Below are positions 44,104-62,492 of a DNA stretch of 64,000 bases, piece by piece; the stretch's first letter is position 1; each line of letters starts with the position of its first letter. The notes beneath the pieces were generated by a model. It did no database searches, had not been told where the DNA came from, and was given only the letters and a program-made list of their open reading frames with translations. This DNA is from a virus: the IMG/VR virus record IMGVR_UViG_3300021963_007714, positions 45,029-109,028 of that record. One strand, 5' to 3'. The position numbers and the translations under genes were made by a program.

Positions 44104-44104
44104 T

Positions 44105-45016: not shown

Positions 45017-45033
45017 ACAAGGACGGAGCGAAT

Positions 45034-45909: not shown

Positions 45910-47064
45910 GTGAGATATTTCTGTTTAAGTTTATTGTTTTGCGCCACCACGGCCTGGGCTGACATAGGGTCAGTTACAGAGGTCACAGGCAGTGGCACAA
46001 TAAAACGTGGTAAAGATTCTGTGACAATAGCCAAGGGAACGGTGATTCAAACCAATGATAAGATTGAAACAAAGAATGGCAAGGTTAAAATTACTTTTAA
46101 AGACAATACTACAGTATCAGTCACGGAACACAGTAGTTTGGTTATTGATGATTTTGTTTATGATCCTAAAAATGCTCAGGGAGGAAAACTTGGTCTAAAG
46201 GCCACTGGTGGTGCTGTGCGCTATGTTAGTGGTGCCATAGCCGGTGCCAACCCTAATGCTGTGAAAATCAATACACCTACTGCGGCAATTGCTGTGCGTG
46301 GCACTGACTTTGTCATGGCAGTAAACGAAGTTGGAGCATCCACTGTGATCCTCATGCCCAGTTGTGAAGATAATGTAGGACCTAATGTTAGAGGTGCCAT
46401 ATGTGGTAGTGGAGCCATTGATGTAGAAAGTGGCCCTAACCTTGTAACAATGAATCGTCCCTTTCAAGCCACTATGGTAGAAACAGCGGGCGCACCTCCT
46501 ACACCCCCCATGACTATTAATATATTTGGCACACCAGTAGGAACTAATTTGTTAGTGAGCCCACCGCCTACTATGAGTGGTGCGCCGTTGGTAGCAGCAG
46601 CAAGAGCCGCAGCGGCAGCAGCAGGTGTTCCAGGAGCGAAAAAAGATGACTCAAAGAAAGAGAGCAAAGAAGAGAGCAAAGATGGTGGTGATAACTCAGA
46701 ACAAGTCGCAAGTAACCAGGCGGCAGACGCTAAAAAGGCTCAAGAAGCCCCTGCTTCAGACACTAAAACCACAGTAGCACAAGCAGAAGTTAAAGAAGAA
46801 ATTCCTGTCACTGCTGCCAAAGAAGAAACAAAGTCAGAAGATCCAGAATGGCTACGTAAGATTTATAAAGATAAATCAGAGACCAAACAGGTAGGTTGGG
46901 CTGTAGAATCAGTTAGCCAAAATGGTCGTAATGTAGCACAGGTTTCATTACAGATGAATACTCAGGTGCAGGTCAGTGTCACACAGGACATGCTGAACGT
47001 GAGCAATAACTTCTCAAGTGGTCGTCCTCAGGGACAGATTATAATTAATCAAACATACAGATGA
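45910..47064 (+). CDS. Secreted FecR-domain protein
   Basis: Signal peptide; IGSVTEVTG, D.IET..G...ITFKDNT...V...S.LVIDDFVYD and TPTAAIAVRGTDF; Pro/Ala/Lys/Glu-rich linker. Confidence 0.85.
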   Translation: MRYFCLSLLFCATTAWADIGSVTEVTGSGTIKRGKDSVTIAKGTVIQTNDKIETKNGKVKITFKDNTTVSVTEHSSLVIDDFVYDPKNAQGGKLGLKATGGAVRYVSGAIAGANPNAVKINTPTAAIAVRGTDFVMAVNEVGASTVILMPSCEDNVGPNVRGAICGSGAIDVESGPNLVTMNRPFQATMVETAGAPPTPPMTINIFGTPVGTNLLVSPPPTMSGAPLVAAARAAAAAAGVPGAKKDDSKKESKEESKDGGDNSEQVASNQAADAKKAQEAPASDTKTTVAQAEVKEEIPVTAAKEETKSEDPEWLRKIYKDKSETKQVGWAVESVSQNGRNVAQVSLQMNTQVQVSVTQDMLNVSNNFSSGRPQGQIIINQTYR

Positions 47065-48902
47065 AATACGGATATCGTTGGACTTCGGGTTTTGGCATTG
47101 TTATACTGGTGCTGTTCCTCTCCTTGGTTTATTTTTGGGCTGAACCTGCTCGTGCTGATGTCACTGATCTACAACTACCGGTAGGTAAAGTATTCGACAG
47201 TCAATGGAATGTAGGAGCCTGCACCCAATCAAGCGGAACCTGCTCAGTAAGCGGCCTTGTATCAAGTCAACTTTACAGTCCATCAGCAGGATGGAAAAGT
47301 TTTACCTCAGGTATGACTGTGCGTTTTAGTTATAATAACGGCAGTGTAGCAGGCAATCCCATACAGTTAGAATTATGGAACAGTAACAATACTCTTAACA
47401 CTGTGATGATTCCTTATGGTAGATTCATTGCTTTTGAAAATGGTGCCAATGAAGGTCGTCAATATATGTTTGTGGATAACACCACTTGGTATGGATATTA
47501 TATTAACCTACAAGCATCTACATCTACCACTAGTTCAACTTGGAATCATGGTGGCACTGCCACTACAGCACAATATCAAGCACTAACACAGGCCATGGTC
47601 ACTGCGCCACCGCCACCTGCTATGCCCACAAACAATGTAGCACAGACCAGTGGGTCAAGCCTATATCCCTATACCAGAGGAACCAGTAATCGTGGATTTA
47701 CAATACAATGGTGGGACTGCTGTGGCAGCGGTGGTTGGAATATGTCAAATGCTACTTGGAGTCAAGGCGGCACAGGCAGCGGCTTTTATGCTTGGGTCAC
47801 AGGATATCTCCGCTGGCCAGGTGCTCAAGACGGTGTAAGTAGAACCATATGGTTTAGAACAGGTTGGGATGACAAGCACAAATTGTTTATCAATGGCACA
47901 CAGATAACCAATGGTGATTGCTGTGCCTATGCCTATGGATCATATACTGCTAAACCTGGTGAATTTGTATATATTCATTTTTATACAGATAACAGTGGCG
48001 GTGGACCTACCAGTTGGGAAATAGCCTGGGATCCACAGGGTGACGGCACCTATGAAGTTATAGGTGGCGAAAGCGTAGGATTAGAATCAGGTGGTGGTTC
48101 AAGTTGGTATTCAAGCACAGAGACTGCCGCACAGATCAATCAAAAAAATTCAGATCGTGCTCGATTAGCAGCATTGGCACAGGGTAACAAATTGTATATC
48201 GCACAAAGCGGTAGTTACGCAGATGTTGATATTATACAAGAAGGTTCAACAAACTATATACAAGGACGTGGTGGAGTAGGCGATGCTCAACTCATAGGCA
48301 ATTATAATACACTGAGAATAAGACAAGGTGATGGATTAGGATCAGGTAAGAACCTAATCGAGTTTGATGTCAATGGAACAAGCAATACTGTGACACTGCT
48401 ACAAGGATGGAACGGAACTTGGCCCTCTGTCAGCAAGGATGGCATTGAAAGTGGCGGACACTACAGTGACCTTAAACTGACAGGCAACAATAACACAGTG
48501 ACATTTCAACAGGCCAACACAGGAGCGGCCAATTCCGGACACTATAACAGATCAGAGATCACAGGTGACACTAATACAGTGTTAGTAAGACAATTATGGG
48601 GCAACGCAGCCTATCACACTTTCTTCAGTAACATAACAGGTAATAGCAACAATGTAGATGTATTACAGGCAGGCGCAGCAGGCAAGTATATGGATCTTAC
48701 CTTGACAGGAAATGGACATACTGTAGTCGCGACCCAGGATGGTGCAGGTAGTCATAGAGCCACTATTAACCTAAGTAGAGTGCTGGGGTCATCCACATTA
48801 AATCTTACGCAGCAAGGGACAGTGGCACAACAATATAACATTACACAGGCCTGCGCTAATCTAAGTGGTTGCTCAGTGACAGTAACACAGGGCACACCAT
48901 AA
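47061..48902 (+). CDS. Secreted protein with PA14-like domain fused to C-terminal curlin repeats
   Basis: N-terminal signal/TM; 'TGYLRWP...FRTGWDDKHKLFING...YTDNSGG' (PA14-like); about 10 Q-x-G-x-x-N/H repeats at the C-terminus. Confidence 0.7.
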   Translation: MKYGYRWTSGFGIVILVLFLSLVYFWAEPARADVTDLQLPVGKVFDSQWNVGACTQSSGTCSVSGLVSSQLYSPSAGWKSFTSGMTVRFSYNNGSVAGNPIQLELWNSNNTLNTVMIPYGRFIAFENGANEGRQYMFVDNTTWYGYYINLQASTSTTSSTWNHGGTATTAQYQALTQAMVTAPPPPAMPTNNVAQTSGSSLYPYTRGTSNRGFTIQWWDCCGSGGWNMSNATWSQGGTGSGFYAWVTGYLRWPGAQDGVSRTIWFRTGWDDKHKLFINGTQITNGDCCAYAYGSYTAKPGEFVYIHFYTDNSGGGPTSWEIAWDPQGDGTYEVIGGESVGLESGGGSSWYSSTETAAQINQKNSDRARLAALAQGNKLYIAQSGSYADVDIIQEGSTNYIQGRGGVGDAQLIGNYNTLRIRQGDGLGSGKNLIEFDVNGTSNTVTLLQGWNGTWPSVSKDGIESGGHYSDLKLTGNNNTVTFQQANTGAANSGHYNRSEITGDTNTVLVRQLWGNAAYHTFFSNITGNSNNVDVLQAGAAGKYMDLTLTGNGHTVVATQDGAGSHRATINLSRVLGSSTLNLTQQGTVAQQYNITQACANLSGCSVTVTQGTP

Positions 48903-48920
48903 ACTATATATAAATAGAAG

Positions 48921-50039
48921 ATGGCTTTATTAATTTCTGGAGGTGTAAGAATTATAGGCAGTACAATAAGTGCGTTACCCGTAACACCACCACCTCTGAA
49001 TATTGGAGAAAGTTTCGGTGGAGGTTATTACGCCGGGTTGTATTCAGCAAGTGGAGACGGAAATCCTACTCACTTTTTAGTTGTATCTCCAGGGTCATCT
49101 GAAACTACTTTATCTTGGAAGTCGTCTCTTACAAATACACCGGGTACAAGTAGTTTATTCGATGGTAGTGCTAACACTGCCGCTATGACAGATGCTTCTC
49201 ATCCTGCGGCAGAATACTGTGGTAATTTAACAACTGGAGGTTATAGTGATTGGTATCTACCTTCTAGATATGAGTTGGCTATAATATATTCAAACACAAG
49301 GGCATGGCCTGGCGATAATGTTACAACGTCCGGTATTAACCCTTACTCGGTATTACCCCGTACTTCTAATTACTCTCTTTATGTACCTGGAGAAGCCACA
49401 TATGCAACTGTATTTAGAAACGTAACAGCACAATTTAATGGAGGTCTTTATTGGACGAGCTCTTCATCTGCCTCACCTACTGCTTGGTTTATCAATACTA
49501 CTGATGGAACTGAAAGCGTTGATTTTAAAGATCAAAATTATACTGTTAGAGCTATAAGAAAAGTACCTTACTATACACAACAAACTGGAGTATCTTACGG
49601 ACCGTATAGATACTGGAGAATGTATATAACCAAGGTAAGGGAAAGTTCAAATCTATCTGATTGTCAAATGGCTGAATTCAAGTTTCAAGTAGATGGTATA
49701 GATAGAGATCTTTACGGAGCTACCTTAACAAATCCTGGAGGTGTGGTAACCGGTCAGGAAGAGGTTTATAGATTAATTGATAATTCAATGTTTTATAAAT
49801 TTTATAATGCAGGCCATTATACTAATGGGACCACTGATATAAGGTTTGATTTTGGGACTCCTGTAAGTTTTACCGGTTATCGATGGGCAACAGCTAATGA
49901 TGTAATATCAAGAGATCCAGAATCCTGGACTATACAGGCAGGTGCTACAACAGCAAGTTATACCACTATTCACACTGTAACAGGATATACAGCAACCACC
50001 GAACGAAACACTTGGCAAAATCCATGGACGTTCACCTAA
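48921..50039 (+). CDS. DUF1566/Lcl (C-type-lectin fold) plus discoidin/F5-8-like virion protein
   Basis: GGYYAG, GGYSDWYLPSRYEL, YWTSS and VRAIR, followed by YRYWRMYIT and RDPESWTIQ. Confidence 0.75.
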   Translation: MALLISGGVRIIGSTISALPVTPPPLNIGESFGGGYYAGLYSASGDGNPTHFLVVSPGSSETTLSWKSSLTNTPGTSSLFDGSANTAAMTDASHPAAEYCGNLTTGGYSDWYLPSRYELAIIYSNTRAWPGDNVTTSGINPYSVLPRTSNYSLYVPGEATYATVFRNVTAQFNGGLYWTSSSSASPTAWFINTTDGTESVDFKDQNYTVRAIRKVPYYTQQTGVSYGPYRYWRMYITKVRESSNLSDCQMAEFKFQVDGIDRDLYGATLTNPGGVVTGQEEVYRLIDNSMFYKFYNAGHYTNGTTDIRFDFGTPVSFTGYRWATANDVISRDPESWTIQAGATTASYTTIHTVTGYTATTERNTWQNPWTFT

Positions 50040-50055
50040 TAGATTAAATACAAAC

Positions 50056-50132
50056 ATAGGATCCTTACAGCAAACTATTTGGCCTTCTTAATCGCTACGT
50101 GTAGCGTGTAGATCTCCCAAAACGGATCCTGT
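50056..50132 (+). ncRNA. Candidate small structured RNA
   Basis: ATTAAATA at 50043; 7-bp closing stem AGGATCC (50058-64)/GGATCCT (50124-30); internal CGCTA-cgtg-TAGCG hairpin. Confidence 0.4.
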
Positions 50133-50158
50133 TATAAATTTTTAGCAATAATAACTCT

Positions 50159-51076
50159 ATGCAAATTACAGGCGGAATATTACTCGGTCAAGGCTTTAAC
50201 ATAAGTCCACCATTTTTTTACACAGTAGATGTGCTTATTTTAGGTGGAGGAGGAGGTGGAGGCGCCGGAAGTAATTGGCAAAACAATGCCAATGGCGGAG
50301 GTGGAGGCGCCGGCGGATACAGGTATATATCCAGTGTAACAGTACAATCTGGAACTGTGTATCCCATGATAGTAGGTCAGGGTGGTATAGGTTCGATTAC
50401 CACAGGAGGGGTAGGTGACATCAATGCCACTTATACTGAAGGAACTAGCGGAACAACAAGTACAGCCTTTGGATATGCTGCTGCAGGTGGTGGCCTTGGT
50501 GGTTCATATACTCCACTAAATGGTATTACCTCAGGTAGGAACGGAGGCTCTGGTGGAGGAGGTGGCGGAGCAGGTGGAGGTCAGCCTACAAGTGGCGGAA
50601 CAGGAAATATACCCGTTACTGTACCAAGCCAAGGAAATAATGGCGGTAGTAATTTTACCAATGATGCTAGCGGAGCCAGCGGTGGAGGAGGTGGTGCTAG
50701 CGCAGCAGGTGCTTCGGGTGCGGCAAATGTAGGAGGTAATGGAGGAGCAGGCAGATATCCGGATATTTGGTATGCTTCAACCTCTGGTGTTTTTGTCTGC
50801 GGTGGAGGAGGTGGTTCTGGATCAACCAATGGCACAGGTGGAGTAGGTGGCGGTGGCAATGCATCTAGAACACCAGGAGCTAACTGTGCCGGCACAGATG
50901 GTCTAGGTGGAGGCGGAGGTGGAACCGGTCTAGGATCAGGCAGAGGAGGTAGTGGAGGCAGAGGTAGAATTTTGGTTAGGTACCCTACTAATATTAGAGC
51001 TAGCGGAGGTACTATTGTTATATATAATGGGTATGTATACCATGACTTTACCTCATCAGATTTTTTTCAAGCTTAA
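50159..51076 (+). CDS. Glycine-rich virion-associated protein
   Basis: GGGGG tracts with VDVLILGGGG...GRILVRYP...YHDFTSS, the architecture of phage Gly-rich domains. Confidence 0.75.
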   Translation: MQITGGILLGQGFNISPPFFYTVDVLILGGGGGGGAGSNWQNNANGGGGGAGGYRYISSVTVQSGTVYPMIVGQGGIGSITTGGVGDINATYTEGTSGTTSTAFGYAAAGGGLGGSYTPLNGITSGRNGGSGGGGGGAGGGQPTSGGTGNIPVTVPSQGNNGGSNFTNDASGASGGGGGASAAGASGAANVGGNGGAGRYPDIWYASTSGVFVCGGGGGSGSTNGTGGVGGGGNASRTPGANCAGTDGLGGGGGGTGLGSGRGGSGGRGRILVRYPTNIRASGGTIVIYNGYVYHDFTSSDFFQA

Positions 51077-51079
51077 AAA

Positions 51080-51376
51080 ATGAACAAAATTATATTAGGA
51101 TTTTTATGTTTTCCAATTACTGTTTGGGCACAACAAACTGCCTATAAAGCCGTGATGTGCGCAGATACTCAATCTGTCATTACTGCTCTTACTGGAAAGG
51201 ATTATAAAGAAAAACCATTCTGGATGGGCGTTGATCAAAAGGAACACACCTACAGCATATTCTATAACAAAGAAACCTCAGGCTGGACCATAATTGAGTT
51301 TAAAGGTAAGACTGCCTGTATATTGGGCGCAGGTGAAGAAAGCCAGTTAAGTCAAGAATTAAGTAGCAAACATTAA
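51080..51376 (+). CDS. Secreted hypothetical protein
   Basis: Signal peptide and two Cys. Confidence 0.6.
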   Translation: MNKIILGFLCFPITVWAQQTAYKAVMCADTQSVITALTGKDYKEKPFWMGVDQKEHTYSIFYNKETSGWTIIEFKGKTACILGAGEESQLSQELSSKH

Positions 51377-51406
51377 AAAAACATAGATTTTATTTTTCAA
51401 ATAGTC

Positions 51407-51435
51407 TTGGCTAATGATATTAAATAGTGTATAAT
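51407..51435 (+). promoter_or_regulatory. Sigma70-type promoter
   Basis: TTGGCT-17-TATAAT. Confidence 0.5.
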
Positions 51436-51467
51436 CGTTGTTTAGGACAAATACACAAGGACACACT

Positions 51468-51626
51468 ATGAAGTATTTAATTGCTACGTTTCTAGCCTTT
51501 GGGCTACCAATTCTAATCGGCATTGGTTTATATTCTATCAAAGATCAGCACCATGCTGTAACCAATGTATGTAATGAACAATTTTACCCAGATCTCTGCG
51601 GTAAAAAGACCGACAAAGAATCTTAA
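51468..51626 (+). CDS. Small membrane protein
   Basis: AAGGA SD before the ATG at 51468; one TM and a Cys pair. Confidence 0.55.
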   Translation: MKYLIATFLAFGLPILIGIGLYSIKDQHHAVTNVCNEQFYPDLCGKKTDKES

Positions 51627-51648
51627 TTTTTAACAGGAGACACAGACC

Positions 51649-52023
51649 ATGTTTGGACTTATTAAATTCCTCATTGCTCTATATCGTGCTTTTGTAGCAC
51701 TACTTGATCCCAATCGTAATGCTCTAAAAGATGCTCCACCACAGATCAAATATATCACCAGTGTGTTACTGGCCAGTTTTTGGGCAGTGGCATTTAGTCT
51801 GTGGGCAGGAGAACTCTATTTCATTGGCTATAATGTAATTGGACATGTAGCGGTAGTAAGTATGGCATTTGCCACTTGGTTGGTATTCCGTCACTTTAGA
51901 AAGACCTATACTAAAAGGTCGGAATACGATCTACTACGTGATCCTAACCGCTTGCCCAAGTGTTACGAACTAACTGATGAAGAGAGACTACAGGCCGCAC
52001 AGAAAGCAAGTTTTCAAAATTAA
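51649..52023 (+). CDS. Membrane hypothetical protein
   Basis: AGGAG SD; two TMs. Confidence 0.65.
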   Translation: MFGLIKFLIALYRAFVALLDPNRNALKDAPPQIKYITSVLLASFWAVAFSLWAGELYFIGYNVIGHVAVVSMAFATWLVFRHFRKTYTKRSEYDLLRDPNRLPKCYELTDEERLQAAQKASFQN

Positions 52024-52083
52024 ACCAAATCCCTGTATCTCGGCATTAAATATTCCATATTATGGCAACTATAAAGGCACAAC

Positions 52084-53748
52084 ATGGAATCAAGATACAG
52101 GGAACTAGAACACCTCATCACTAAATTTACCAGGCAAATACCCGATACTGAAGAATACAACCAAAGACTAGCAGAAGAATTAGAACTAATAGCACAATTA
52201 GGTTTTGCCAAACACTTTCTAAGAGTTAGGGAAATACTGGATCTAACTCGTGACATTCCACATATAACCAGAGGATCAGCAGGCTCAAGCCTGATCTGTT
52301 ATCTAATGGCTATATCAGATGTAGATCCTGTAAAAGAACGCATACCCCTGGCAAGGTTTATGAATCCCAAGCGTGATGACTTACCTGACATTGACTTAGA
52401 CTTCCCTCACTGGCAACAGGAAACTGTTATGAACAGGATCTACAAAAGATGGCCAGGACAATCAGCCCGTGTTAGCAACTATGTAACCTATAAAGAAAAG
52501 TCTGCCATACGTGAGGCAGCTAAGAGATATGGTGCTAAGGGTAGACTACCTCGCAATATTGATCTCGATAAGGTTGTGCCCGAGTTCGCAGATGATGCTA
52601 AAAGATTAGTTAAAAAACTATTAGGTAAGAAACGCTGTATATCCAAGCACTGCGGTGGCATACTGATCTTCGATCGAGCGGTGCCTAAGAGTCTAATCAA
52701 TGCCGAAAATCAAATTCTACTGGACAAGTATGAAATTGAGGACCTAGAACACTTTAAGATAGATATACTTGCCAACAGAGGACTGAGTCAACTATGGGAA
52801 ATAGAACAGCGTTCATTGTCTGACTATCCTGAACATGATGAGGCTACCAGCGAATTATTGTGTCGTGGTGATATACTGGGTGTAACACAGGGTGAATCAC
52901 CTGCTATGAAGCGTCTGTTTCGTGCTATTCGTCCCAAGAGTAAAAGTGACTGCACTTTGGCCACTGCCCTAATTCGTCCAGTAGCTACACAAGGTCGTCG
53001 TAAGGCTTCATTCTTTCAAGACTGGTCTAAAGATGGCTTTCAAGATACCATAGTGTTCGAAGATGATGCCATAGAACTTATATCAGAAATTTTAGGCTGT
53101 GATAGTTATACCGCAGACATGTGGCGTCGTGCCTTTGCTAAAAAGAACGAAGAAAAGATGTTTGAGTTCCTACAACTAGTGGGCGATCATCCACGCAAAG
53201 ACGATGTGTTCATGGCGCTGAAAGAACTCAGTCACTTTGGTCTATGCCGTGCTCATGCTATAAATTTAGGTAGATTGATTTGGGCTTTAGCATACCAAAA
53301 GGCACATAATCCCGAAGCGTTCTGGCGTGCTGCTCTAAAACACTGTCAGGGATCATATGCTCGTTGGGTCTATTGGCAAGAGGCCAAGTTGGCTGGTGCT
53401 GTGCCTGCCATAGGTCAAGGTGGAGAAATTGAGGACCTAATGAAAACAGGTCGTTGGCGTTCAAAGAGTTTTATACCTGTATGCCAAGAAGTACGAAAGC
53501 CTGGGCAGGTAGAGTTCTGCGGCCTGGTAGCAAACTATCGTGTGTTTAAATCAAAGCCCAAAGAGTATATCACATTCGTCACACTGGGCACAGGCAACGG
53601 GCGTTATTTAGATGTGGTCCTACCTCATGCTGTGAGCCTACATGATCATCCTATCATATGGGGAACGGGCAAATTGGGGTATAAAAATAACACAGAGTAT
53701 GTTACAGTATACAAGCATAAAAGAATCAAACTACAAGAATTAGTATGA
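52084..53748 (+). CDS. Minimal family C DNA polymerase (DnaE-like, lacking PHP domain)
   Basis: RGSAGSSLICY, RFMNPKRDDLPDIDLDF, SKHCGGI, KIDIL and AHA; only 554 aa. Confidence 0.85.
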   Translation: MESRYRELEHLITKFTRQIPDTEEYNQRLAEELELIAQLGFAKHFLRVREILDLTRDIPHITRGSAGSSLICYLMAISDVDPVKERIPLARFMNPKRDDLPDIDLDFPHWQQETVMNRIYKRWPGQSARVSNYVTYKEKSAIREAAKRYGAKGRLPRNIDLDKVVPEFADDAKRLVKKLLGKKRCISKHCGGILIFDRAVPKSLINAENQILLDKYEIEDLEHFKIDILANRGLSQLWEIEQRSLSDYPEHDEATSELLCRGDILGVTQGESPAMKRLFRAIRPKSKSDCTLATALIRPVATQGRRKASFFQDWSKDGFQDTIVFEDDAIELISEILGCDSYTADMWRRAFAKKNEEKMFEFLQLVGDHPRKDDVFMALKELSHFGLCRAHAINLGRLIWALAYQKAHNPEAFWRAALKHCQGSYARWVYWQEAKLAGAVPAIGQGGEIEDLMKTGRWRSKSFIPVCQEVRKPGQVEFCGLVANYRVFKSKPKEYITFVTLGTGNGRYLDVVLPHAVSLHDHPIIWGTGKLGYKNNTEYVTVYKHKRIKLQELV

Positions 53749-54032: not shown

Positions 54033-54066
54033 TTGTAATAATTCTGTAATCATTAAATGCTAATAT
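54033..54066 (+). promoter_or_regulatory. Pho box and -10 element
   Basis: TTGTAAT-AATT-CTGTAAT (11-bp periodic repeat like the PhoB box), 10 nt upstream of TAATAT and in front of phoX-pstS. Confidence 0.75.
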
Positions 54067-54109
54067 AAATGTAAATATTACTAACAATCATTTACATAGG
54101 AGAAAGCAG

Positions 54110-56317
54110 ATGATTACAGAGACTGAGAATACGTCTAATAATCCACACATCAGCGATGTGATTAAAGCGATGTTAGGCAATCCAAATCGCCGAAGTTTCC
54201 TAAAAGGAAGTTCGGCTTTTTTTACGGCTGCTACAGCAGCAACAATAGCAGGTTGTGCCAGTAGTGATGATGATCTACTACCGACACCGAGCACATTGAG
54301 TTTCGAAGCAGTTCCTAAGAACACATTTGACAAGGTCACACTACCCCCAGGTTATCAATTCACAGTGCTACATGGCACAGGAGATAGGCTAGTCAGTAGC
54401 ATTCCTGCCTATTCAAACAAGGGTGTAGAGACAGATGATTGGAGTCAGCGAGTGGGTGACCATCACGATGGCATTGAATTATTTCATATTGATGCCAATG
54501 GTAAGTATACCACACAGATGACTGGTCGTGCTGTGTTGGCAATGAATCACGAAAGTTCAGCAGACGCACATTTTTTCCACCCCAATGGACAGACCAGTAA
54601 CGGTCAAAATGGTAAAAAGTTTGATCAGTTTGGTCAATGGGATTTGGGTGTTCGTCCCGGATTAGAAGTATTAAAAGAAATCAATCACCACGGTGTCAGT
54701 CTCGTGGAGATTAACAAGGGTAGCACAGGTTGGACATACAAGGTAGATAGCGGATTAAATAGAAGGGTTACAGCACAAACTCCCGTGCGAATCAGCGGAC
54801 CGGCCGCAGACATGGCTAACATAAAAGGTTTAATGTCTACCAAGTTTGATCCAACAGGTGCTACCGCTCGCGGCACATTAAACAACTGCGGCACAGGGTC
54901 TACACCTTGGGGAACCATGCTGACCTGTGAAGAAAACTGGGCTGTATATACTCATATGCCCAAAGGCAGCAATCCAGTAGATGCCAGACTGGTTCAAACT
55001 CGCAAGCGTTATGGCGTAGCAGCAGAACCACTTTCCGGTAGTGCCACAGCCAGCACCAGTCAAGGATGGCATACTCCTTCAGACATGCCCGACACAGGTC
55101 TGCGTTTTAGTCGCTGGGATACCAGTGCTCGTGGAGCCACAGCACAGGAAGACTTTCGCAATGAACCACATACTTTTGGTTACAATGTAGAAATTGATCC
55201 TCTTAATCCCAATGCTCAACCAGTGAAGCGTGTGGCCATGGGTCGTTTCGCACACGAAGCCGCTGTATATGGTAAACTGGAAGCAGGTAAGCCTGTGGTG
55301 TTTTACATGGGCTGCGATAGTCGTAATGAGTATATCTATAAGTTTGTCAGTGCTCAACCTTGGAATCCTGCTGATGTGGGCGGCGGTATGGCTGCTGGTG
55401 ACAAATATCTCAACGAAGGTAAATTGTATGTGGCCAAGTTTAACAATGATGGAACAGGCACATGGATTGAATTGAGTATTGCCAATCCTGCTATTGCCAA
55501 CTATGCCACATTCAAATTTAATAATCAAGCAGAAATATTTGTATTCACTCGCATAGCCGCTGATGCTGTAGGTGCTACCAAAATGGATCGTCCAGAGTGG
55601 GGTGCTGTAAATCCTGCCAATGGCGAAATCTATTTTGCCCTGACCAACAACTCAGCCAGCAATCGCACTCCAATGACCACAGATGGTGCCAATCCAAGAA
55701 GTTATGCTGATCCCGATGGCAACAAGCGTACGGGCAACCCCAATGGACATATTATTCGTTGGCGTGAGACTGCTACAGGATTTCAATGGGATATCTTCTT
55801 GTTTGGTTCAGAAGAAGACAATGCTGCCAGCAACATTTCAAAACTCACTGCCAAGAATTCGTTTAGTAGCCCAGACGGATTGTGGTTTAGCAAGGCCACA
55901 GGTCTTTGCTGGATACAGACAGATGATGGTGCGTATACAGATGAAGTACATAATCAACTGTTAGTGGCCATTCCTGGTCGGGTAGGAGATGGTGGAGCTA
56001 AAACCATTACCAATACACTAAGCGGTGCTACTAAAGATCAGGCCACATTTGTGGGTGCTGAATTAGGCGAAACAAAATTGCGTCGATTCCTAACTGGTCC
56101 TGCTGGTTGTGAAATCACCGGTATCGCTGAATCCGCAGATGGACGCACTATATTTGTCAATGTTCAGCATCCAGGCGAGGACACAGAAGCCACTTTCTGG
56201 AAAGGATCTGCTCCACAAAGTCAATGGCCAGCCAATCAAGGCTATGGACCACAAGGGCGTCCTCGTTCAGCCACTTTGGTAATCACCAAGGTTGACGGCG
56301 GCTTAATCGGCCTATAA
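54110..56317 (+). CDS. phoX: PhoX alkaline phosphatase (Tat-exported, probable lipoprotein)
   Basis: NRRSFLK Tat motif, IAGC lipobox, HHDG, NHE, TCEEN, GRFAHE, MDRPE, SPDGL, CEITG and NVQHPGE. Confidence 0.93.
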   Translation: MITETENTSNNPHISDVIKAMLGNPNRRSFLKGSSAFFTAATAATIAGCASSDDDLLPTPSTLSFEAVPKNTFDKVTLPPGYQFTVLHGTGDRLVSSIPAYSNKGVETDDWSQRVGDHHDGIELFHIDANGKYTTQMTGRAVLAMNHESSADAHFFHPNGQTSNGQNGKKFDQFGQWDLGVRPGLEVLKEINHHGVSLVEINKGSTGWTYKVDSGLNRRVTAQTPVRISGPAADMANIKGLMSTKFDPTGATARGTLNNCGTGSTPWGTMLTCEENWAVYTHMPKGSNPVDARLVQTRKRYGVAAEPLSGSATASTSQGWHTPSDMPDTGLRFSRWDTSARGATAQEDFRNEPHTFGYNVEIDPLNPNAQPVKRVAMGRFAHEAAVYGKLEAGKPVVFYMGCDSRNEYIYKFVSAQPWNPADVGGGMAAGDKYLNEGKLYVAKFNNDGTGTWIELSIANPAIANYATFKFNNQAEIFVFTRIAADAVGATKMDRPEWGAVNPANGEIYFALTNNSASNRTPMTTDGANPRSYADPDGNKRTGNPNGHIIRWRETATGFQWDIFLFGSEEDNAASNISKLTAKNSFSSPDGLWFSKATGLCWIQTDDGAYTDEVHNQLLVAIPGRVGDGGAKTITNTLSGATKDQATFVGAELGETKLRRFLTGPAGCEITGIAESADGRTIFVNVQHPGEDTEATFWKGSAPQSQWPANQGYGPQGRPRSATLVITKVDGGLIGL

Positions 56318-56339
56318 ACTAGTAGCAAGGAGATCAATG

Positions 56340-56426
56340 ATGGCAAAACTAAAACAATGTTGGTGTTGGGTATGTGAAAAACTTCGTATGTGTTATTGCG
56401 AATGTAAGACTGCCTGCCGTTGTTGA
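56340..56426 (+). CDS. Cys-rich micropeptide (28-29 aa, 8 Cys)
   Basis: AAGGAG SD at 56327; (M)MAKLKQCWCWVCEKLRMCYCECKTACRC-stop. Confidence 0.6.
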   Translation: MAKLKQCWCWVCEKLRMCYCECKTACRC

Positions 56427-56458
56427 TCTCAATCTAATTAAACTCAAAAGGAAATTAA

Positions 56459-57472
56459 ATGAAACGATTCTTAATGGCCACAGCGGCCGCTTTATTCTCT
56501 GTTGCTGTTCAAGCAGCAGAAATCACAGGGGCTGGTGCTACCTTTCCCTATCCTATCTATGCCAAATGGGCCGAAGCATATAACAAGGCCACTGGCAATA
56601 CCTTGAACTATCAAAGTATTGGTAGTTCAGGTGGTATTCGTCAAATCAACAACAAAACAGTATCATTTGGAGCCAGTGATGCTCCAGTAAAAGGAGAAGA
56701 TCTTGATAAACTTGGACAAGTTCAATTCCCTGCTATCATCGGTGGCACAGTGCCTGTTATCAATCTTGATGGCTTCAAGGCAGGTGAACTTCGCATCACA
56801 GGACCTGTCATGGCAGAAGTTTTTATGGGAAACATTACCAAATGGAATGACCCAAAACTACAAGCATTAAATCCAGGTAAAAAGTTACCAGACATGAACA
56901 TCACTGTGGTTCATCGTGCTGATGGTTCTGGCACTACTTTCAATTGGACCGACTACTTGACTGTGATCAGCCCAGAGTGGGAAAAGCGTGTGGGCCGTGG
57001 AGCAGCAGTAAAATGGCCTGCTACCAGTTCAGTTGGTGGCAAGGGTAACGAAGGTGTTGCTGCCAATGTAAATAGAATTAAAGGCAGTATTGGTTATGTT
57101 GAATATGCCTATGTTAAGAAAAATCTAATGAATTATATGTTGTTACAAAACAAGGCTGGTAACTTTGTTGCCCCTGATGATACAACTTTCGCAGCAGCCG
57201 CAGCGGGAGCAGATTGGTTCTCAGTTCCAGGAATGGGCTTGAGTATTGTAAATCAGGGCGGCAAGGATACTTGGCCTGTGACTACTGCTTCGTTTATAAT
57301 TATGTATAAGGAACCAGCAGACAAGCGAGCCAGCCAAGAAGTTATCAAGTTTTTTGATTGGGCATTCAAGAACGGTGCTAAGTTAAGCGCAGAACTTGAT
57401 TATGTTCACTTACCAGATAAACTACAGGCTGATATTCGCAGTCGTGTTTGGAGTCAAATTAAAAATCAATAG
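56459..57472 (+). CDS. pstS: Phosphate ABC transporter periplasmic binding protein
   Basis: ITGAGATFPYP, YQSIGSSGG, FGASD, HRADGSGTT and GSIGYVEY. Confidence 0.97.
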   Translation: MKRFLMATAAALFSVAVQAAEITGAGATFPYPIYAKWAEAYNKATGNTLNYQSIGSSGGIRQINNKTVSFGASDAPVKGEDLDKLGQVQFPAIIGGTVPVINLDGFKAGELRITGPVMAEVFMGNITKWNDPKLQALNPGKKLPDMNITVVHRADGSGTTFNWTDYLTVISPEWEKRVGRGAAVKWPATSSVGGKGNEGVAANVNRIKGSIGYVEYAYVKKNLMNYMLLQNKAGNFVAPDDTTFAAAAAGADWFSVPGMGLSIVNQGGKDTWPVTTASFIIMYKEPADKRASQEVIKFFDWAFKNGAKLSAELDYVHLPDKLQADIRSRVWSQIKNQ

Positions 57473-57479
57473 GTGACGT

Positions 57480-57695
57480 ATGAGTGACGCAGCGGGTGGA
57501 TTTTTAGCAGTATTTGAACAAAGAGTAGGACAACTTAGAAAACGTCTTCGAGATGAATTAGACAAAGACAAACCCATCCGCTGTCGTAGAACACTTAAAA
57601 AAGTTATAAAAGAAATAAAAGAATGGGAAGATGTTCTACATCAACATCGTAAGGACACTAAACGGTGTCCGCATTGTGGGGAGAAGTTAGAATGA
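57480..57695 (+). CDS. Small coiled-coil protein with CPHCG knuckle
   Basis: RCPHCGEKL C-terminus. Confidence 0.6.
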   Translation: MSDAAGGFLAVFEQRVGQLRKRLRDELDKDKPIRCRRTLKKVIKEIKEWEDVLHQHRKDTKRCPHCGEKLE

Positions 57696-57793
57696 CTACA
57701 GAACTTTGGTTGTTTGTATTAGCAGTATTTGCCATCACCGCCGCCATTGTTATACCTAATTTGATAACATGGCGACGTAGGCGAAAAGATTAA
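57692..57793 (+). CDS. 33-aa single-TM peptide
   Basis: MTTELWLFVLAVFAITAAIVIPNLITWRRRRKD; ATGA overlap and GGAG upstream. Confidence 0.5.
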   Translation: MTTELWLFVLAVFAITAAIVIPNLITWRRRRKD

Positions 57794-57957
57794 CTCATTC
57801 CTAATGCTACGATAACAGACACAACCAATATTAAAAATACAATGAAACCTGACCTGTCCTTGTGACCACCATGGACAGGATCTACATCCCGAAAATCAGG
57901 CTTAGTTGTATTTTTCTTTTGTGCTGCTATCAGGGCTTGAAGTAGAACTGGCTTCAT
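57790..57957 (-). CDS. 55-aa protein with C-terminal TM
   Basis: MKPVLLQALIAAQKK...GFIVFLILVVSVIVALGMS; AAGGA SD within the terC 3' end. Confidence 0.45.
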   Translation of the reverse strand: MKPVLLQALIAAQKKNTTKPDFRDVDPVHGGHKDRSGFIVFLILVVSVIVALGMS

Positions 57958-58630
57958 TTTTTGATTTCCTTATGCGTGTTCTATAATATTGCTTACAGGT
58001 TAAAACAATTGCTAGAACCCAAGGTAGTCCCATTTCGGACCAATCATGCAGGGGATCTATATACTTATCAACAAAGGGTTCTGCTACAATCATCTTAAAG
58101 GCCACAGCATATAATACAAATGCGCCGATAAAGATTGTGTCAGGATGCTTTTCTAATATACGAGCAACAATTGTACTACCAAACAAGATAATAGGAACAC
58201 TGACAAGAAGTCCAAATATAATTAATATCCAGTTTCCATTAGCAGCACCAGCAATAGCTAGGGCATTATCCAAGCCCATAACAGCATCTGCTAACACAAT
58301 AGTTGCCATAGCGCCCCAAAATGTGTCACTGGCCTTAACATCCTTATGATCATCACTGCCTGTGGTTAAACGCCAGGCAATCCATATAAGCATAAGACCA
58401 CCTATAAACCTAAGACCAGGAATCATAAGCAAATAGGTAAGTGCTGCTACACAGGCAAATCGAACAGCTACAGCACCAAATGTTCCCCATATCATGGCTC
58501 GCTTTCTTAAATTTTCGGGCAACTTATTAGCAGCCATGGCAATAACTAAGGCATTCTCACCACCTAAAACTACATCTATTAAAATAATAGCCAATAAGGC
58601 CCATAAAAATTCAAATGATAATATTTCCAT
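57902..58630 (-). CDS. TerC/YjbE family membrane protein
   Basis: IDVVLGGENALVIA, ADAVMGLDNALAIAGAA and FGLLVSVPI. Confidence 0.9.
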   Translation of the reverse strand: MEILSFEFLWALLAIILIDVVLGGENALVIAMAANKLPENLRKRAMIWGTFGAVAVRFACVAALTYLLMIPGLRFIGGLMLIWIAWRLTTGSDDHKDVKASDTFWGAMATIVLADAVMGLDNALAIAGAANGNWILIIFGLLVSVPIILFGSTIVARILEKHPDTIFIGAFVLYAVAFKMIVAEPFVDKYIDPLHDWSEMGLPWVLAIVLTCKQYYRTRIRKSKNEASSTSSPDSSTKEKYN

Positions 58631-58662
58631 AAATTGTCCTGTACAAAATCATTTTATTTAAT

Positions 58663-58687
58663 AAAAAAAGGCCCCTAAGGGCCTTTT
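58663..58687 (-). terminator. Rho-independent terminator
   Basis: A7-GGCCC-ctaa-GGGCC-TTTT downstream of the minus-strand HTH gene. Confidence 0.8.
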
Positions 58688-58705
58688 AGTTTGAACTGGA
58701 TCGAA

Positions 58706-58975
58706 TTACAGACCAAGTTGAAGAGCACGATAACCTGCAGCAATCAAACGACGGCTGGGTTGTCCCATAACGTATTCAGTAACTTGAACACCATTGCCTG
58801 CTTTGCGGCTGTTGGCATAAACAGCAAAACCAGCCTGACGGATACGGCTTGCTTCTGCTGAAATGTTCTTAATGCCAAAACGCTTTTCTGCCTGTGCAGG
58901 AGTAAGTTTCTCACCTGACTTAAGTGCGGTGAAAAGTTTATGGGTCTTAGTGCCTTCATTAATAGAATATAACAT
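58706..58975 (-). CDS. Small winged-HTH DNA-binding protein
   Basis: LKSGEKLTPAQAEKRFGIKNISAEASRIRQAG; GAGGA SD; start reassigned to 58975. Confidence 0.7.
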   Translation of the reverse strand: MLYSINEGTKTHKLFTALKSGEKLTPAQAEKRFGIKNISAEASRIRQAGFAVYANSRKAGNGVQVTEYVMGQPSRRLIAAGYRALQLGL

Positions 58976-59021
58976 ATTATTTCCTCTTAGATGTTTATAC
59001 TGCTTCTTAGCAGTTAGAGCA

Positions 59022-59050
59022 AGTATAGCAGTATAATTATAGTAGGTCAA
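59022..59050 (-). promoter_or_regulatory. Sigma70 promoter (extended -10)
   Basis: TTGACC-17-TATACT with TGn on the minus strand. Confidence 0.7.
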
Positions 59051-59080
59051 GAACTATTTTTGCCAAATAAATAAAGTATC

Positions 59081-61135
59081 ATGAGAAAGATATTATTAAA
59101 TCCATATTGGGCCCTATTAACCCTCGTAGCCGTGTTAGCACTGAGATTTTTTGATCCCAGTTTTGTTGAGTCGGTTAGACTACGCTATTTTGATCAACTT
59201 ATAACCAGTCAACCAAAGGTTGAAGTTCCTGTTCATACTGTTAACATTGATGAACAGACTTTGGAAAAATTAGGTCAATGGCCCTTTCCAAGAGGCGACT
59301 ATGCTAAAATGATCAACGATCTATACCAGCGTAACGCAGGACTTGTTGTATTCAATGTGTTAATGCCCGAATTTGATCGTTTCAAAGAGGACAAAGAATT
59401 AGCACAATATCTGAAGTCTCACCCAGTTGTTCTTCCTATATTAGGGCATACCAAAGACCGTAATGCCACACAGCCACCGCATACACAGGTAGTTGGACAA
59501 GATCCACAGGGCAAGGTGGTTGAATATCCAGGAGTTATAAGTTCAGTGGCAATAATAACAGGTCAGGCCACAGGTTATGGGGTAGTTAATACCTTTCCGG
59601 AAATAGATGGTGTTGTTCGTCGTATGCCCCTGGTAATTGCCAGCCAAGGTAAGTTACATCCAGCATTGGCTTTAGAAACACTGCGAGTAGCAGCACAAGA
59701 TCCTCGTGTTCAAATAAAGATAGGAGACATTGGTGTAGAGGCTTTGCGTGTGCCCAAGATAGGCAAGATACCGACAGATCCATTGAGTCGTATATGGATT
59801 GATTGGTCAGCACAGCCTAAAGAACATAGTTTTATGTCGTTGCCCGATGACTTCAAAGGTGAAATAGTCATTGTGGGTTTATCAGCAGCGGGCTTGGCTA
59901 ATCCTGTGGCCACAGCCAGAGGAGAAGTATGGCCTCACTTTTTACAGGGCACGGTGTTAGGAACACTAACTACACAGAGCCACATACAGAGACCCGACTG
60001 GGCAGATGCCGCCGAATTAGGTGCTATTGCTGTATTTGGCATTTTAATTATATTCTTATCAAGGTGGGTCTATGTCGGTATCGGATTTTATCTTATTCTT
60101 GCTGGTTCATGCGTGGCAGGCAGCATGTACGGGTATAGTAATTATAGGTGGCTTATTGATGCTACTTTGCCTACCCTTAGTATTCTTCTTGTAGCACTAC
60201 ATGCCTATACAGTGAAGTTTATTTCAGAATTCCTACAGAAACAGCAGATACGCAAACAGTTTCAAAGTTATCTATCACCAGATCTTGTGGCCAAACTGAT
60301 AAAAGATCCTAGCCTACTTAAACTGGGCGGTGAAGAAAAAGAACTCTCAATCATGTTTACAGATGTGCGCGGCTTTACATCAATATCAGAACACTATGGC
60401 AAAGATGTTCAAGGTCTTACAAAAATCATGAATCGTTATATGACTGCCATGACACGCAAGATATTAGAAAATCATGGCACATTAGACAAGTATATTGGTG
60501 ATGCTCAAATGGCGTTTTGGAATGCTCCATTAGATGAAACTATTCACTGTAAGGAAAGCGTCAAGGCAGCACTGGAAATGTTAGAAGATCTAAAGGTATT
60601 CAATGATGAAATTACCAAAGAAGGAATCCCTGCGTTTGGCATGGGCATTGGCATTAACACTGGGGTTGTTGTTGTCGGCAATATGGGCAGTGAGCAACGC
60701 TTTGACTATACTTGTTTGGGTGACGCAGTTAATTTGGCCAGCCGCTTAGAAGGTCAGAGCAAGAACTATGGCGTCCTATTGGTCATTGGTCCTGTAACAG
60801 AAAGCAGATTAGAGGGCACAGCATTTAGCCTACCTCTAGATTGTATTGCGGTCAAGGGCAAACACGAAGGTGTAAACATTTTTACAGCGTTTCATAATCC
60901 ACCTGAAAATCTCAAGGCACAATGGCTAGCAGACAAAGAACGTCATGTTGAGATGTTGGGTTATTATCGTGCTCAACAATGGAACAAGGCCTTGAAAGCA
61001 GTAGAAGCACTTAAAGGAAAATTCAATGGACAAATGGATCACTACTATGAACTATGGACCGAACGCATTCATGAAATGGCCAGCGCTGGATTACCCGCAG
61101 ATTGGGATGGCGTCTTTAGAGCAACCAGCAAGTGA
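59081..61135 (+). CDS. CHASE2-domain class III adenylate cyclase
   Basis: CHASE2 (IDE..L...GQWPFPR, DGVVRR.PL), three TMs, and cyclase motifs MFTDVRGFT, DKYIGDAQM and YTCLGDAVNLASRLEG. Confidence 0.93.
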   Translation: MRKILLNPYWALLTLVAVLALRFFDPSFVESVRLRYFDQLITSQPKVEVPVHTVNIDEQTLEKLGQWPFPRGDYAKMINDLYQRNAGLVVFNVLMPEFDRFKEDKELAQYLKSHPVVLPILGHTKDRNATQPPHTQVVGQDPQGKVVEYPGVISSVAIITGQATGYGVVNTFPEIDGVVRRMPLVIASQGKLHPALALETLRVAAQDPRVQIKIGDIGVEALRVPKIGKIPTDPLSRIWIDWSAQPKEHSFMSLPDDFKGEIVIVGLSAAGLANPVATARGEVWPHFLQGTVLGTLTTQSHIQRPDWADAAELGAIAVFGILIIFLSRWVYVGIGFYLILAGSCVAGSMYGYSNYRWLIDATLPTLSILLVALHAYTVKFISEFLQKQQIRKQFQSYLSPDLVAKLIKDPSLLKLGGEEKELSIMFTDVRGFTSISEHYGKDVQGLTKIMNRYMTAMTRKILENHGTLDKYIGDAQMAFWNAPLDETIHCKESVKAALEMLEDLKVFNDEITKEGIPAFGMGIGINTGVVVVGNMGSEQRFDYTCLGDAVNLASRLEGQSKNYGVLLVIGPVTESRLEGTAFSLPLDCIAVKGKHEGVNIFTAFHNPPENLKAQWLADKERHVEMLGYYRAQQWNKALKAVEALKGKFNGQMDHYYELWTERIHEMASAGLPADWDGVFRATSK

Positions 61136-61139
61136 TATC

Positions 61140-61262
61140 ATGGACACACAAATAAAATTCTTTGTCACTGCTTGGTTTTGGCCCTACTTTGTCATGGGCA
61201 ATTTAGACAGTTGGCAAAAACTTGGTATAACACTAAACGGAGCAAGACCAATAAGGTGCTAA
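61140..61262 (+). CDS. Possible 40-aa peptide between the cyclases
   Basis: MDTQIKFFVTAWFWPYFVMG... fills the intergenic gap exactly; no clear SD. Confidence 0.35.
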   Translation: MDTQIKFFVTAWFWPYFVMGNLDSWQKLGITLNGARPIRC

Positions 61263-62492
61263 ATGGACAAAAAATTAACCACCATACTGTGTAGTGATGT
61301 TATAGGATACAGTCGTATGATGGGAGAGAATGAACATCTAACTCTCCAAAAATTAGATCAATGTAGACAGATCATTGATCCCAGTATAGCAAAATATAAT
61401 GGCCGTATTTTTAACACAGCAGGTGATGCTGTGTTGGCAGAGTTTGCCAGTCCCACTGACGCTGTAAAATGTGCTGTAGACATTCAAAACTCAATCAACA
61501 AACTTAATACGGACATGCGTTGGCGTATTGGCCTACATCTAGGCGAAGTCTATGCCTACGGTGATAATCTCATGGGCGACACCGTGAACATTGCTGCTCG
61601 TATAGAAAGCACTGCTGACTTGGGAGGTGTCTGCTTTAGCAGTCAGGTCTTTGATGCTATCAGTGGCAAGGTTACCATGGATATAGAATGGCGAGGACCA
61701 CAGTCATTTAAGAATATTAAAGATCCTATCAAAATCTATGCTGTAAAAATAGCAGGTGCCCAAAAAAACCCCAATGTAGTTCATAAAGAAACTGTGAAAT
61801 ATAGCAAGGAACAATTGATCAAGAGTGTGATAAATGACAAACCTGCCGTAGGTAAAACTCTACAAGATGCTCAAAATCTTAAACGTGATCGTCAGTTTGG
61901 TCCTGCTGTTCGTGTGTTAATGTGGCGTATTACAAAAAAGTGCGGAGCCAGTCTAAATGAACTGTTAGATATGAGCCAAAAAGAATTAGTGCCTGTAGAA
62001 CTAAGGCATGTTGTAGTGGCCATACTCAGTGAATATTGTAAAGGTGTAGACAGTGATCGAGCCATGTTAATTTACAAATTACTACAAGGACCGTTAGGTG
62101 TTCATCGTAGCCTTGGTTTACAGTTTTTAAAACAAGCGGCCAAGACCAATCCCGAAGCGCAGATGGAATATAGTTCTACAATTATGGAAGATCCACACAG
62201 CAGCCAAAATGAAATTACTGATGCTGTAGAACAGTTGGTCACTATGGCTCGAAGAAAGAGTCAACCTGCTATGTTGAAGTTATGTGACTACTATAATAAG
62301 GTGGGTGAAAAACATCAACAGTTTTTATGGTTGTGGGTATTGAGAGGACTGTTTGAACCTTCGGCACAGAACAAACTTCAACTGTTAATGAATACAATTA
62401 GCAAGACTGATTTTACTAATTGGAAAATAGAAGGGGAATCGCTGTTAGATGAAATTAAATTTAAGAACGATCCTGGTAACTATGGTTATTAA
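61263..62492 (+). CDS. Soluble class III nucleotide cyclase with helical-repeat (Sel1/TPR-like) C-terminus
   Basis: ILCSDVIGYSRMM, FNTAGDAVLAEF, RIGLHLGEV, GDTVNIAARIE and FKNI. Confidence 0.85.
   Translation: MDKKLTTILCSDVIGYSRMMGENEHLTLQKLDQCRQIIDPSIAKYNGRIFNTAGDAVLAEFASPTDAVKCAVDIQNSINKLNTDMRWRIGLHLGEVYAYGDNLMGDTVNIAARIESTADLGGVCFSSQVFDAISGKVTMDIEWRGPQSFKNIKDPIKIYAVKIAGAQKNPNVVHKETVKYSKEQLIKSVINDKPAVGKTLQDAQNLKRDRQFGPAVRVLMWRITKKCGASLNELLDMSQKELVPVELRHVVVAILSEYCKGVDSDRAMLIYKLLQGPLGVHRSLGLQFLKQAAKTNPEAQMEYSSTIMEDPHSSQNEITDAVEQLVTMARRKSQPAMLKLCDYYNKVGEKHQQFLWLWVLRGLFEPSAQNKLQLLMNTISKTDFTNWKIEGESLLDEIKFKNDPGNYGY

Follow-up and report, generated by a model that had tools for sequence, protein, structure and literature searches.

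A curli operon that carries a FecR-domain gene and a CHASE2 adenylate cyclase gene some 12 kb further on form one evolutionary unit in a giant T4-like phage, as the two halves of one conserved phage module. Both halves lie in the window, the whole 64,000-nucleotide stretch analysed here (positions 45,029 to 109,028 of IMG/VR record IMGVR_UViG_3300021963_007714; coordinates below are those of the window). We think that this split assembly of type VIII secretion system (T8SS), FecR-fold protein and cyclase probably reports the state of the envelope as cyclic AMP (cAMP). The idea of the module is not new: FecR and a cyclase were described in 2022 in the viral T8SS region, given there as csgF and csgG followed by a curlin, FecR, another curlin and an adenylate cyclase gene, to which podophages add a histidine kinase (PMC9599517), and the window adds little to the discovery of the module itself. 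New here are its split by a mosaic cargo island, a soluble second cyclase with Asn at both base-specifying positions, and a DUF3307-like gene that travels with the module.

The first half of the module is one late operon of csgF, csgG, a curlin gene, the FecR-domain gene and a curlin-fusion gene. A T4-type late promoter motif, TATAAATA (43602..43609, +), stands 20 nt before csgF (43630..44103, +), which encodes a CsgF-like T8SS component with a signal peptide (N-terminus MKKIALALFLLPLLAHA; Pfam CsgF, 8.2e-9). Next come the outer-membrane pore lipoprotein CsgG (44093..45016, +; Pfam CsgG, 1.7e-49; lipobox LGGC), which is 45–50% identical to CsgG of the Methylophilales phage Melnitz and the Pelagibacter phage HTVC008M, and a curlin-repeat subunit of 288 aa with a signal peptide and QxGxxN-type repeat units (45034..45900, +; Pfam Curlin_rpt, 2e-6). 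The gene for the exported FecR-fold protein, of 384 aa, starts 10 nt after the curlin stop codon (45910..47064, +; Pfam FecR, 6.4e-10). The last gene (47061..48902, +) encodes a 613-aa 'curlin 2' protein made of a signal or transmembrane (TM) anchor, a middle domain and curlin-like repeats at its C-terminus. Over its C-terminal half it matches Melnitz gp103, a curlin associated repeat protein, and HTVC008M AGE60352, which occupy the same position. Residues 1–380 of this protein had no match in Pfam or among PDB sequences, and a lectin- or PA14-like identity of its N-terminus, an impression from motifs, was without support. Fibre formation by the curlin-repeat proteins is putative. No CsgE, CsgC or CsgD family of Pfam was found among the genes neighbouring the operon, as has likewise been reported for viral T8SS (PMC9599517). 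Nor does a histidine kinase gene precede the operon, as it does in the podophage form, the upstream genes being the DUF3307-like and a LamG gene; a preceding kinase was not reported as universal in the myophage form (PMC9599517).

The second half of the module begins 12.0 kb after the end of the FecR-domain gene (47064 to 59081). It encodes a 684-aa class IIIb adenylate cyclase with a CHASE2 domain (59081..61135, +; Pfam CHASE2, 2.1e-38; Guanylate_cyc, 7.7e-19), and a late-type motif, AATAAATA (59066..59073, +), is located 7 nt before its ATG. The topology comprises an N-terminal helix (TM1), a periplasmic CHASE2 domain (residues 14–322 in Pfam), a TM bundle at about 316–381, the cyclase domain (420–600; 420–596 in Pfam) and a conserved C-terminal tail, with hydrophobic segments at 3–21, 316–334 and 363–381 by hydropathy. 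The metal-binding residues D428 and D474, the adenine-specificity residues K470 and T544 and the transition-state residues N551 and R555 are in place, as is K594. This set is that of a class IIIb Lys/Thr pair and makes up a complete adenylate-cyclase active site, predicting synthesis of cAMP; the best PDB sequence matches are adenylate cyclases, including CyaB and CyaC. The cyclase is 38% identical to that of Melnitz over 96% of its length and 54–90% identical to those of 80 IMG/VR loci. In one of the related loci (L096:15077-17902) the gene is split into a CHASE2 open reading frame (ORF) and a TM-plus-cyclase ORF by an ORF of 251 aa with a NUMOD3 motif of the homing-endonuclease type, an arrangement that resembles the split genes of other T4-like phages.

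The initial annotation of this DNA had called a FecR protein in the curli operon, a CHASE2 class III cyclase about 12 kb downstream with its catalytic residues (D, K, D, T, N, R) intact, and (A)ATAAATA-type promoters in front of both loci. We confirmed each of these features, and the placement of such octamers, among them TATAAATA before csgF and AATAAATA before the cyclase, is not random. The end coordinate given there, 62492, takes in a second cyclase gene that was left undescribed.

As the two loci are not adjacent, their link had been offered as a hypothesis, to be checked by synteny in phages. A search of IMG/VR returned 595 relatives of the cyclase, and neighbourhoods were taken from the best 80 loci with a reach of 10 kb. 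FecR and csgG were both found within 10 kb of the cyclase in 67 of these 80 loci, and in 60 of the 62 for which upstream sequence of 7 kb or more is available. The two exceptions, L004 and L005, are the window's nearest kin and show the same split, with FecR (93% identical) 15.4 kb upstream of the cyclase. Seen from csgG, FecR stands directly behind the curlin gene in 42 of 44 loci, and the remaining two run off the contig; where at least 9 kb of downstream sequence was available (24 loci), FecR was present in all 24, and of the three loci that left the cyclase at 21 two belong to the split lineage. The order csgF-csgG-curlin-FecR-(curlin2)-cyclase is shared by Melnitz, HTVC008M and over 100 contigs of IMG/VR, mostly without interruption; in Melnitz and HTVC008M all six genes, curlin2 included, are contiguous on one strand. 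The association survives inversion, as the cyclase is on the strand opposite to the csgF-FecR block in 10 loci, and in L079 csgFG are inverted while FecR, curlin2 and the cyclase remain together. In addition, the same split is seen in three independent kin contigs; the link between cyclase and FecR has been kept despite 12 kb of cargo between them. From this conserved neighbourhood it follows that the cyclase is linked to the curli/FecR operon, and the whole set is maintained as a unit in phages of great diversity.

We also analysed the promoter motifs that the two loci share. The raw count of TATAAATA/AATAAATA octamers was 8, against 8.7 expected by chance, and is not an over-representation. 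Twelve of the 17 plus-strand NATAAATA sites, however, lie no more than 46 nt upstream of a start codon, and by this placement the motif behaves as a T4-type late promoter. A AATAAATA-type motif also precedes the cyclase in the nearest kin, L004 and L005. We noted that several NATAAATA motifs stand only 4–7 nt before the annotated ATG (window positions 12115, 30874, 39141, 40640, 41791, 48909 and 59066), which leaves no space for a ribosome-binding site; either such late mRNAs are leaderless or the true starts are further downstream.

The two halves are separated by a mosaic cargo island (48909..59050, mixed strands), which carries, as judged by Pfam, Lcl_C, Gly_rich_2, small ORFs, a DNA polymerase III alpha (PolIII-alpha) fragment, PhoX, a PstS-like gene and, on the minus strand, TerC and a winged helix-turn-helix (wHTH) gene. 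The island differs among kin that are 88–98% identical. The Lcl_C and Gly_rich_2 genes, each behind its own TATAAATA, and the LamG gene are found at the edges of the operon (42154-43572 and 48921-51076) and are absent from L088-L090. Cargo is found recurrently between curlin2 and the cyclase, namely PstS in L021, TerC in L025, L028 and L034, and the ORF o98 in L006 and L023. Read-through from the curli operon is excluded by the TerC and wHTH genes, which run on the minus strand, together with a strong hairpin terminator (58687-58666, −), and the cyclase is therefore a transcription unit of its own.

Two genes of the island deserve separate description. The wHTH gene (HTH_39; 58706-59050, −) diverges from the cyclase across a 30-bp spacer and adjoins it only in this lineage; with a sigma-70-like promoter (TTGACC-17-TATACT) in front and a terminator of its own, it could give an early transcript or one made by the host polymerase. 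The PolIII-alpha fragment (554 aa; 52084-53748) comprises the NTPase and finger domains only and is 99% identical across kin, against 81–98% for the flanking genes.

Downstream of the CHASE2 cyclase by 127 nt lies the gene for the second, soluble class III cyclase of 409 aa (61263..62492, +; Pfam, 8.4e-9). Its active-site residues are D12, N51, D55, N102, N109 and R113, with Asn at both base-specifying positions (N51 and N102). Its best PDB matches are 3MR7 and Rv1900c, the latter of which also has Asn at the Lys position. Metagenomes contain a large family of such proteins, of about 409 aa and conserved over their full length; adjacency to the CHASE2 cyclase is confined to the window, L004 and L005. 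Nothing above noise was found for its helical C-terminal half in Pfam or a protein atlas. We treat this cyclase as a neighbour, not as part of the module.

The presence of two cyclases raises the possibility that in this lineage the CHASE2 cyclase has been uncoupled from the operon and forms with the soluble enzyme a separate cyclic-nucleotide unit for host takeover or counter-defence. Indeed, it stands apart from the operon by 12 kb and two minus-strand genes and follows a late-type motif of its own, and no terminator is predicted between it and the Asn/Asn cyclase, which accompanies it only here. Such uncoupling nevertheless appears extremely unlikely, given that FecR (93% identical) and the CHASE2 cyclase (89–90%) are both intact in the kin with the same split, that the curlin2-cyclase junction recurrently takes up cargo in phages that otherwise keep the cassette together, and that the second cyclase is of a widespread stand-alone family. 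PADLOC matched both cyclases to PycC, the cyclase of Pycsar-type defence (4.8e-26 and 4.8e-8); the matches span the generic cyclase domain only, and no effector gene was recognised.

We then considered what the FecR-fold protein may be. Its signal peptide (MRYFCLSLLFCATTAWA), apparently a cleavable one, is directly followed by a beta domain, with no TM segment in the hydropathy profile or in an AlphaFold2 (AF2) model built on 29 orthologues (predicted local distance difference test score, pLDDT, 77.6). The model consists of a confident, beta-rich N-domain (residues 16–238), a disordered charged linker (242–309) and a six-stranded C-domain (311–381). The N-domain superposes on the C-terminal cell-surface signalling domain (CCSSD) of PupR (6OVK_R; Z 15.1, root mean square deviation (rmsd) 2.7 Å, 133 residues) and on BDI_1681 (4M0N; Z 13.8). 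Residues 16–111 match the RIN domain of MpIBP (5IX9) with Z 10.8 and an rmsd of 2.1 Å over 73 of 76 residues, at 25% identity. RIN is a periplasmic plug that lodges MpIBP, a giant adhesin secreted by a type I secretion system (T1SS), in its TolC-like pore (PMC5550230), and it is the template for the retention module of LapA (bioRxiv 10.1101/198937). All of about 75 orthologues of the phage protein have a signal peptide, the motif IGxVTE, the FecR domain, a variable linker and a C-domain ending in ..GG.T.ITI.Q.., and the family amounts to 248 clusters (50% identity) at E ≤ 1e-30 in a large protein library. The phage N-domain shares 35% identity with a 1462-aa marine protein that has FecR and cadherin domains. 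Only two long proteins sharing this N-domain were found, in a word-limited search, so that the low count says little.

An identity as FecR-type anti-sigma regulator was rejected, as the protein has neither a cytoplasmic anti-sigma domain nor a TM segment; no extracytoplasmic function (ECF) sigma factor or TonB-dependent transducer is encoded among the genes at 38.6–63.8 kb of the window. We also rejected, at the sequence level, the reading of the C-terminal end (..N.GG.T.ITI.Q..) as a curlin repeat: a profile built from the final 50 residues in 60 orthologues, searched against 89 curlin-type targets, matched none at E ≤ 0.01. The C-domain alone (AF2, pLDDT 76.6) retrieved only generic immunoglobulin (Ig)-like sandwiches, with Z ≤ 4.0, from 48,161 PDB representatives. 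The modelled fold suits a periplasmic plug or co-sensor, with kinship to the retention modules of adhesins, better than it suits an iron regulator.

A more specific version of this reading is that the FecR-fold protein is a trans-envelope tether, with the plug on CHASE2, the linker through CsgG/CsgF and the C-domain outside or on the fibre. The disordered linker of about 70 residues would then thread the channel while the N-terminal plug stays in the periplasm, and the cyclase would directly register a pull on the outer end, its binding or its loss, whether due to particles, to other cells or to a phage that superinfects. We consider the tether a long shot. If true, it would define a general and previously unrecognised family of secretion-coupled surface mechanosensors with cAMP as output.

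The likeness to retention modules also bears on the possibility that the two proteins merely travel together. FecR would then be a T8SS accessory, either a stand-in for CsgE or CsgC or a pore plug, and the cyclase an independent enzyme raising host cAMP on an unrelated periplasmic cue. In favour of this, the phage operon lacks CsgE, CsgC and CsgD, a FecR gene comes after that for curlin at every csgG locus while the cyclase is sometimes missing or distant, and the N-domain resembles a module that plugs a pore. On the other hand, FecR-domain and CHASE2 proteins are paired in bacteria in the absence of any T8SS (PMC5192318, PMC9239204), and in L079 FecR stays with the cyclase while csgFG are inverted. 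We therefore judge mere co-travelling to be quite improbable.

The pairing in bacteria, which the initial annotation had taken as established together with an outer-membrane partner, is borne out both by the literature and by the nearest cellular relatives of the phage cyclase. Pairs of a LysM-FecR protein and a CHASE2 histidine kinase are known from the Burkholderia BiofilmReg system and from P. aeruginosa (PMC5192318); a cluster of Campylobacterota joins a CHASE2 cyclase to FecR-domain, TPR and phosphodiesterase genes (PMC9239204); and S. meliloti has CHASE2 cyclases and a FecR-domain target of Clr, SMc02177 (PMC5498481). An outer-membrane partner has experimental support in S. meliloti, where the beta-barrel NsrA is needed for the external signal that raises the cAMP made by CHASE2 cyclases (PMC13001267).

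Matches to 'genomes' at 40–65% identity were mostly phage contigs in bins of metagenome-assembled genomes and had the same cassette. True cellular relatives of the cyclase are about 31–33% identical to it and adjoin FecR-domain and type I secretion genes. In SAR116 the order is an ABC transporter with C39 peptidase, a fusion of cNMP_binding and HlyD, the CHASE2 cyclase and a FecR-domain protein of 234 aa. The HlyD with its N-terminal cNMP-binding domain (L141:3555-6092) is directly upstream of the CHASE2 cyclase and FecR-domain gene, and this secretion machine may be gated by cAMP. On an Inquilinaceae chromosome (L149:3107-15273) DUF3307, a 2107-aa FecR adhesin, the CHASE2 cyclase, ABC and HlyD genes follow one another on one strand, the adhesin having an N-terminal FecR domain and then He_PIG, cadherin, Big_9 and LamG domains. 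By analogy, these arrangements suggest that the cyclase/FecR pair may be a portable unit coupling the secretion of surface fibres or adhesins to cAMP, and that phages may have attached this unit to a T8SS.

The DUF3307 gene of Inquilinaceae has a counterpart in the window (BLASTP, 1e-6; profile, 2.8e-12), a gene for a small His-rich membrane protein of 122 aa (41804..42172, +) with TATAAATA 5 nt upstream. Its homologues adjoin the module in 45 loci, either directly upstream of csgF or a few kb from the cyclase. The DUF3307-like protein is possibly an accessory member of the module. Between it and csgF lies the LamG-domain gene (42154-43572, +).

The reading that we favour, envelope state reported as cAMP, would work as follows. 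Late in infection the phage would install the CsgG/CsgF pore and export curlin-type subunits. The FecR-fold protein would be the periplasmic partner, ligand or co-sensor, of CHASE2, as is thought for the bacterial CHASE2 kinases and cyclases, and the cyclase would convert an envelope state tied to fibre export or assembly into cytoplasmic cAMP. Since no cAMP receptor is recognisable among the phages' own genes, the targets of this cAMP would be those of the host. Both the direction of signalling and the function of the module are what we infer here. The initial annotation had gone further, with CsgG/curlin as the sensor and cAMP that times lysis or rewires CRP regulons; these proposals found neither support nor contradiction in our results. 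Lysis timing, the sensing of superinfection or aggregation may be what the phage gains. If the sensor reading is true, a virus installs its own signalling line from envelope to cytoplasm late in infection.

The published proposal runs in the opposite direction: adenylate cyclase, histidine kinase and FecR are regulators of the viral T8SS (PMC9599517), so that the cyclase, with FecR, would control the T8SS from the inside and cAMP would switch the production or export of curli on or off. The fusion of a cNMP-binding domain to the HlyD of the T1SS neighbouring the SAR116 pair shows how cAMP could act directly on a secretion machine. The phage T8SS proteins, however, have no cNMP-binding or other recognisable cAMP-binding domain, and none of five phage genomes has a CsgD, CRP or cNMP_binding gene. 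Moreover, the curli genes are behind T4-type late promoters and would not need cAMP-CRP, and a periplasmic sensor domain on the cyclase favours an input from the envelope. Control from the inside is thus unlikely in our view.

Several observations weigh against a sensor that ends in cAMP, or against the tie between its two halves. The cyclases of Melnitz (L002:7932-9980) and of L013 (4541-6601) have Ser in place of the transition-state Asn and Asp in place of the specificity Thr. The cyclase is often absent from podophage versions (PMC9599517), and some csgG loci, such as L103, have no cyclase within reach. As a separate unit 12 kb away, the cyclase of the window could have become independent. 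The late-type motif is common to many late genes and carries little information on a specific link between the two loci. The cNMP-binding domain PF00027 was found neither in the contig, Melnitz and HTVC008M nor in three kin of 328–383 kb, a search that did not extend to other receptor types. Finally, one true RNA run yielded only scraps of 30–40 nt over FecR and PstS.

The carrier of the module is a giant T4-like phage of freshwater or other aquatic origin. The contig is a linear IMG/VR viral record of 109 kb, of which the window is the last 64 kb, with a CheckV completeness of about 30%. It has T4-type baseplate wedge genes, ribonucleotide reductase, DNA ligase and an ORF of 5392 aa, and its relatives include contigs of 328–383 kb that are rated 92–100% complete; we assigned the carrier to the giant T4-like phages on these grounds. 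Close relatives come from metagenomes labelled freshwater, aquatic, lagoon or marine in at least 14 studies. Megablast of 20 kb of the window against a phage collection gave no match. Outside the module, genes for Hsp20, heme oxygenase and a ferredoxin-dependent bilin reductase stand in a row at 38679-40644, a set more familiar from cyanophages; a fatty-acid desaturase gene is located further on, as are PhoX, PstS and TerC.

Reports of curli genes appeared in 2020 for pelagimyophages (PMC7029224) and in 2022 for Melnitz (PMC9004378), both silent on a cyclase and on FecR, and the CHASE2 domain and the bacterial pairing of FecR-domain with CHASE2 proteins are mentioned in neither of these nor in PMC9599517. 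The viral T8SS genes co-vary across oceans, with all components detected in metatranscriptomes, and viral curli proteins were found at all 65 GOV2.0 stations (PMC9599517). The module is abundant in aquatic phages. Through it an infected cell would acquire a secretion pore, fibres and a cyclic-nucleotide enzyme absent from several hosts.

Compared with the T8SS region of pelagiphages (HTVC008M, KC465899 7562-13807; Melnitz, MZ577097 50731-56876), the window has the same gene set in the same order. Orthology is at 38–50% identity to these cultured phages and up to 90% to uncultured contigs. Unlike in pelagiphages, the module of the window is split by a 10-kb mosaic island and its cyclase is its own transcription unit; the carrier is not a SAR11 phage but of a giant T4-like lineage found mostly in freshwater and other aquatic metagenomes, and the range of the module thereby takes in giant T4-like phages from fresh and brackish water. 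The window also differs from the published form in the extra soluble cyclase downstream and in having no histidine kinase gene upstream.

With the FecR/PupR anti-sigma regulators (6OVK) the phage FecR-fold protein has in common the periplasmic C-terminal cell-surface signalling fold, but it is without their anti-sigma domain, their TM helix and their adjacent ECF sigma factor and TonB-dependent transducer. Its likeness to the LapA/MpIBP retention module consists in an N-terminal periplasmic beta-sandwich plug, with a flexible segment behind it whose length would suffice for threading a pore, and bacterial relatives of the N-domain head giant cadherin- or Ig-repeat adhesins beside T1SS genes. 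In contrast to LapA and MpIBP, the phage protein has no RTX repeats or T1SS signal, and LapG and LapD are not encoded by the neighbouring genes scanned. The pore is a TolC-like channel for MpIBP and would be CsgG in the phage, where threading is hypothetical; for this likeness, therefore, only 'works like' is arguable.

The bacterial FecR/CHASE2 pairs resemble the phage pair in that an exported protein with only the periplasmic FecR domain is encoded beside a sensor built of one TM helix, CHASE2 and a TM bundle. In Campylobacterota and S. meliloti the output is a class III cyclase, as in the phage. The phage pair differs in being attached to curli secretion, with no cAMP receptor or phosphodiesterase encoded alongside, and the mechanism has been demonstrated for none of the bacterial pairs. 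The last comparison is with the NsrA-CyaD1/CyaD2/CyaK-Clr system of S. meliloti. NsrA is unrelated to CsgG, and the plant uL2 signal and the CRP-like receiver Clr are without phage counterparts. The resemblance lies in an outer-membrane protein that feeds CHASE2 cyclases, and for this type of sensor no other trans-envelope route has experimental support.

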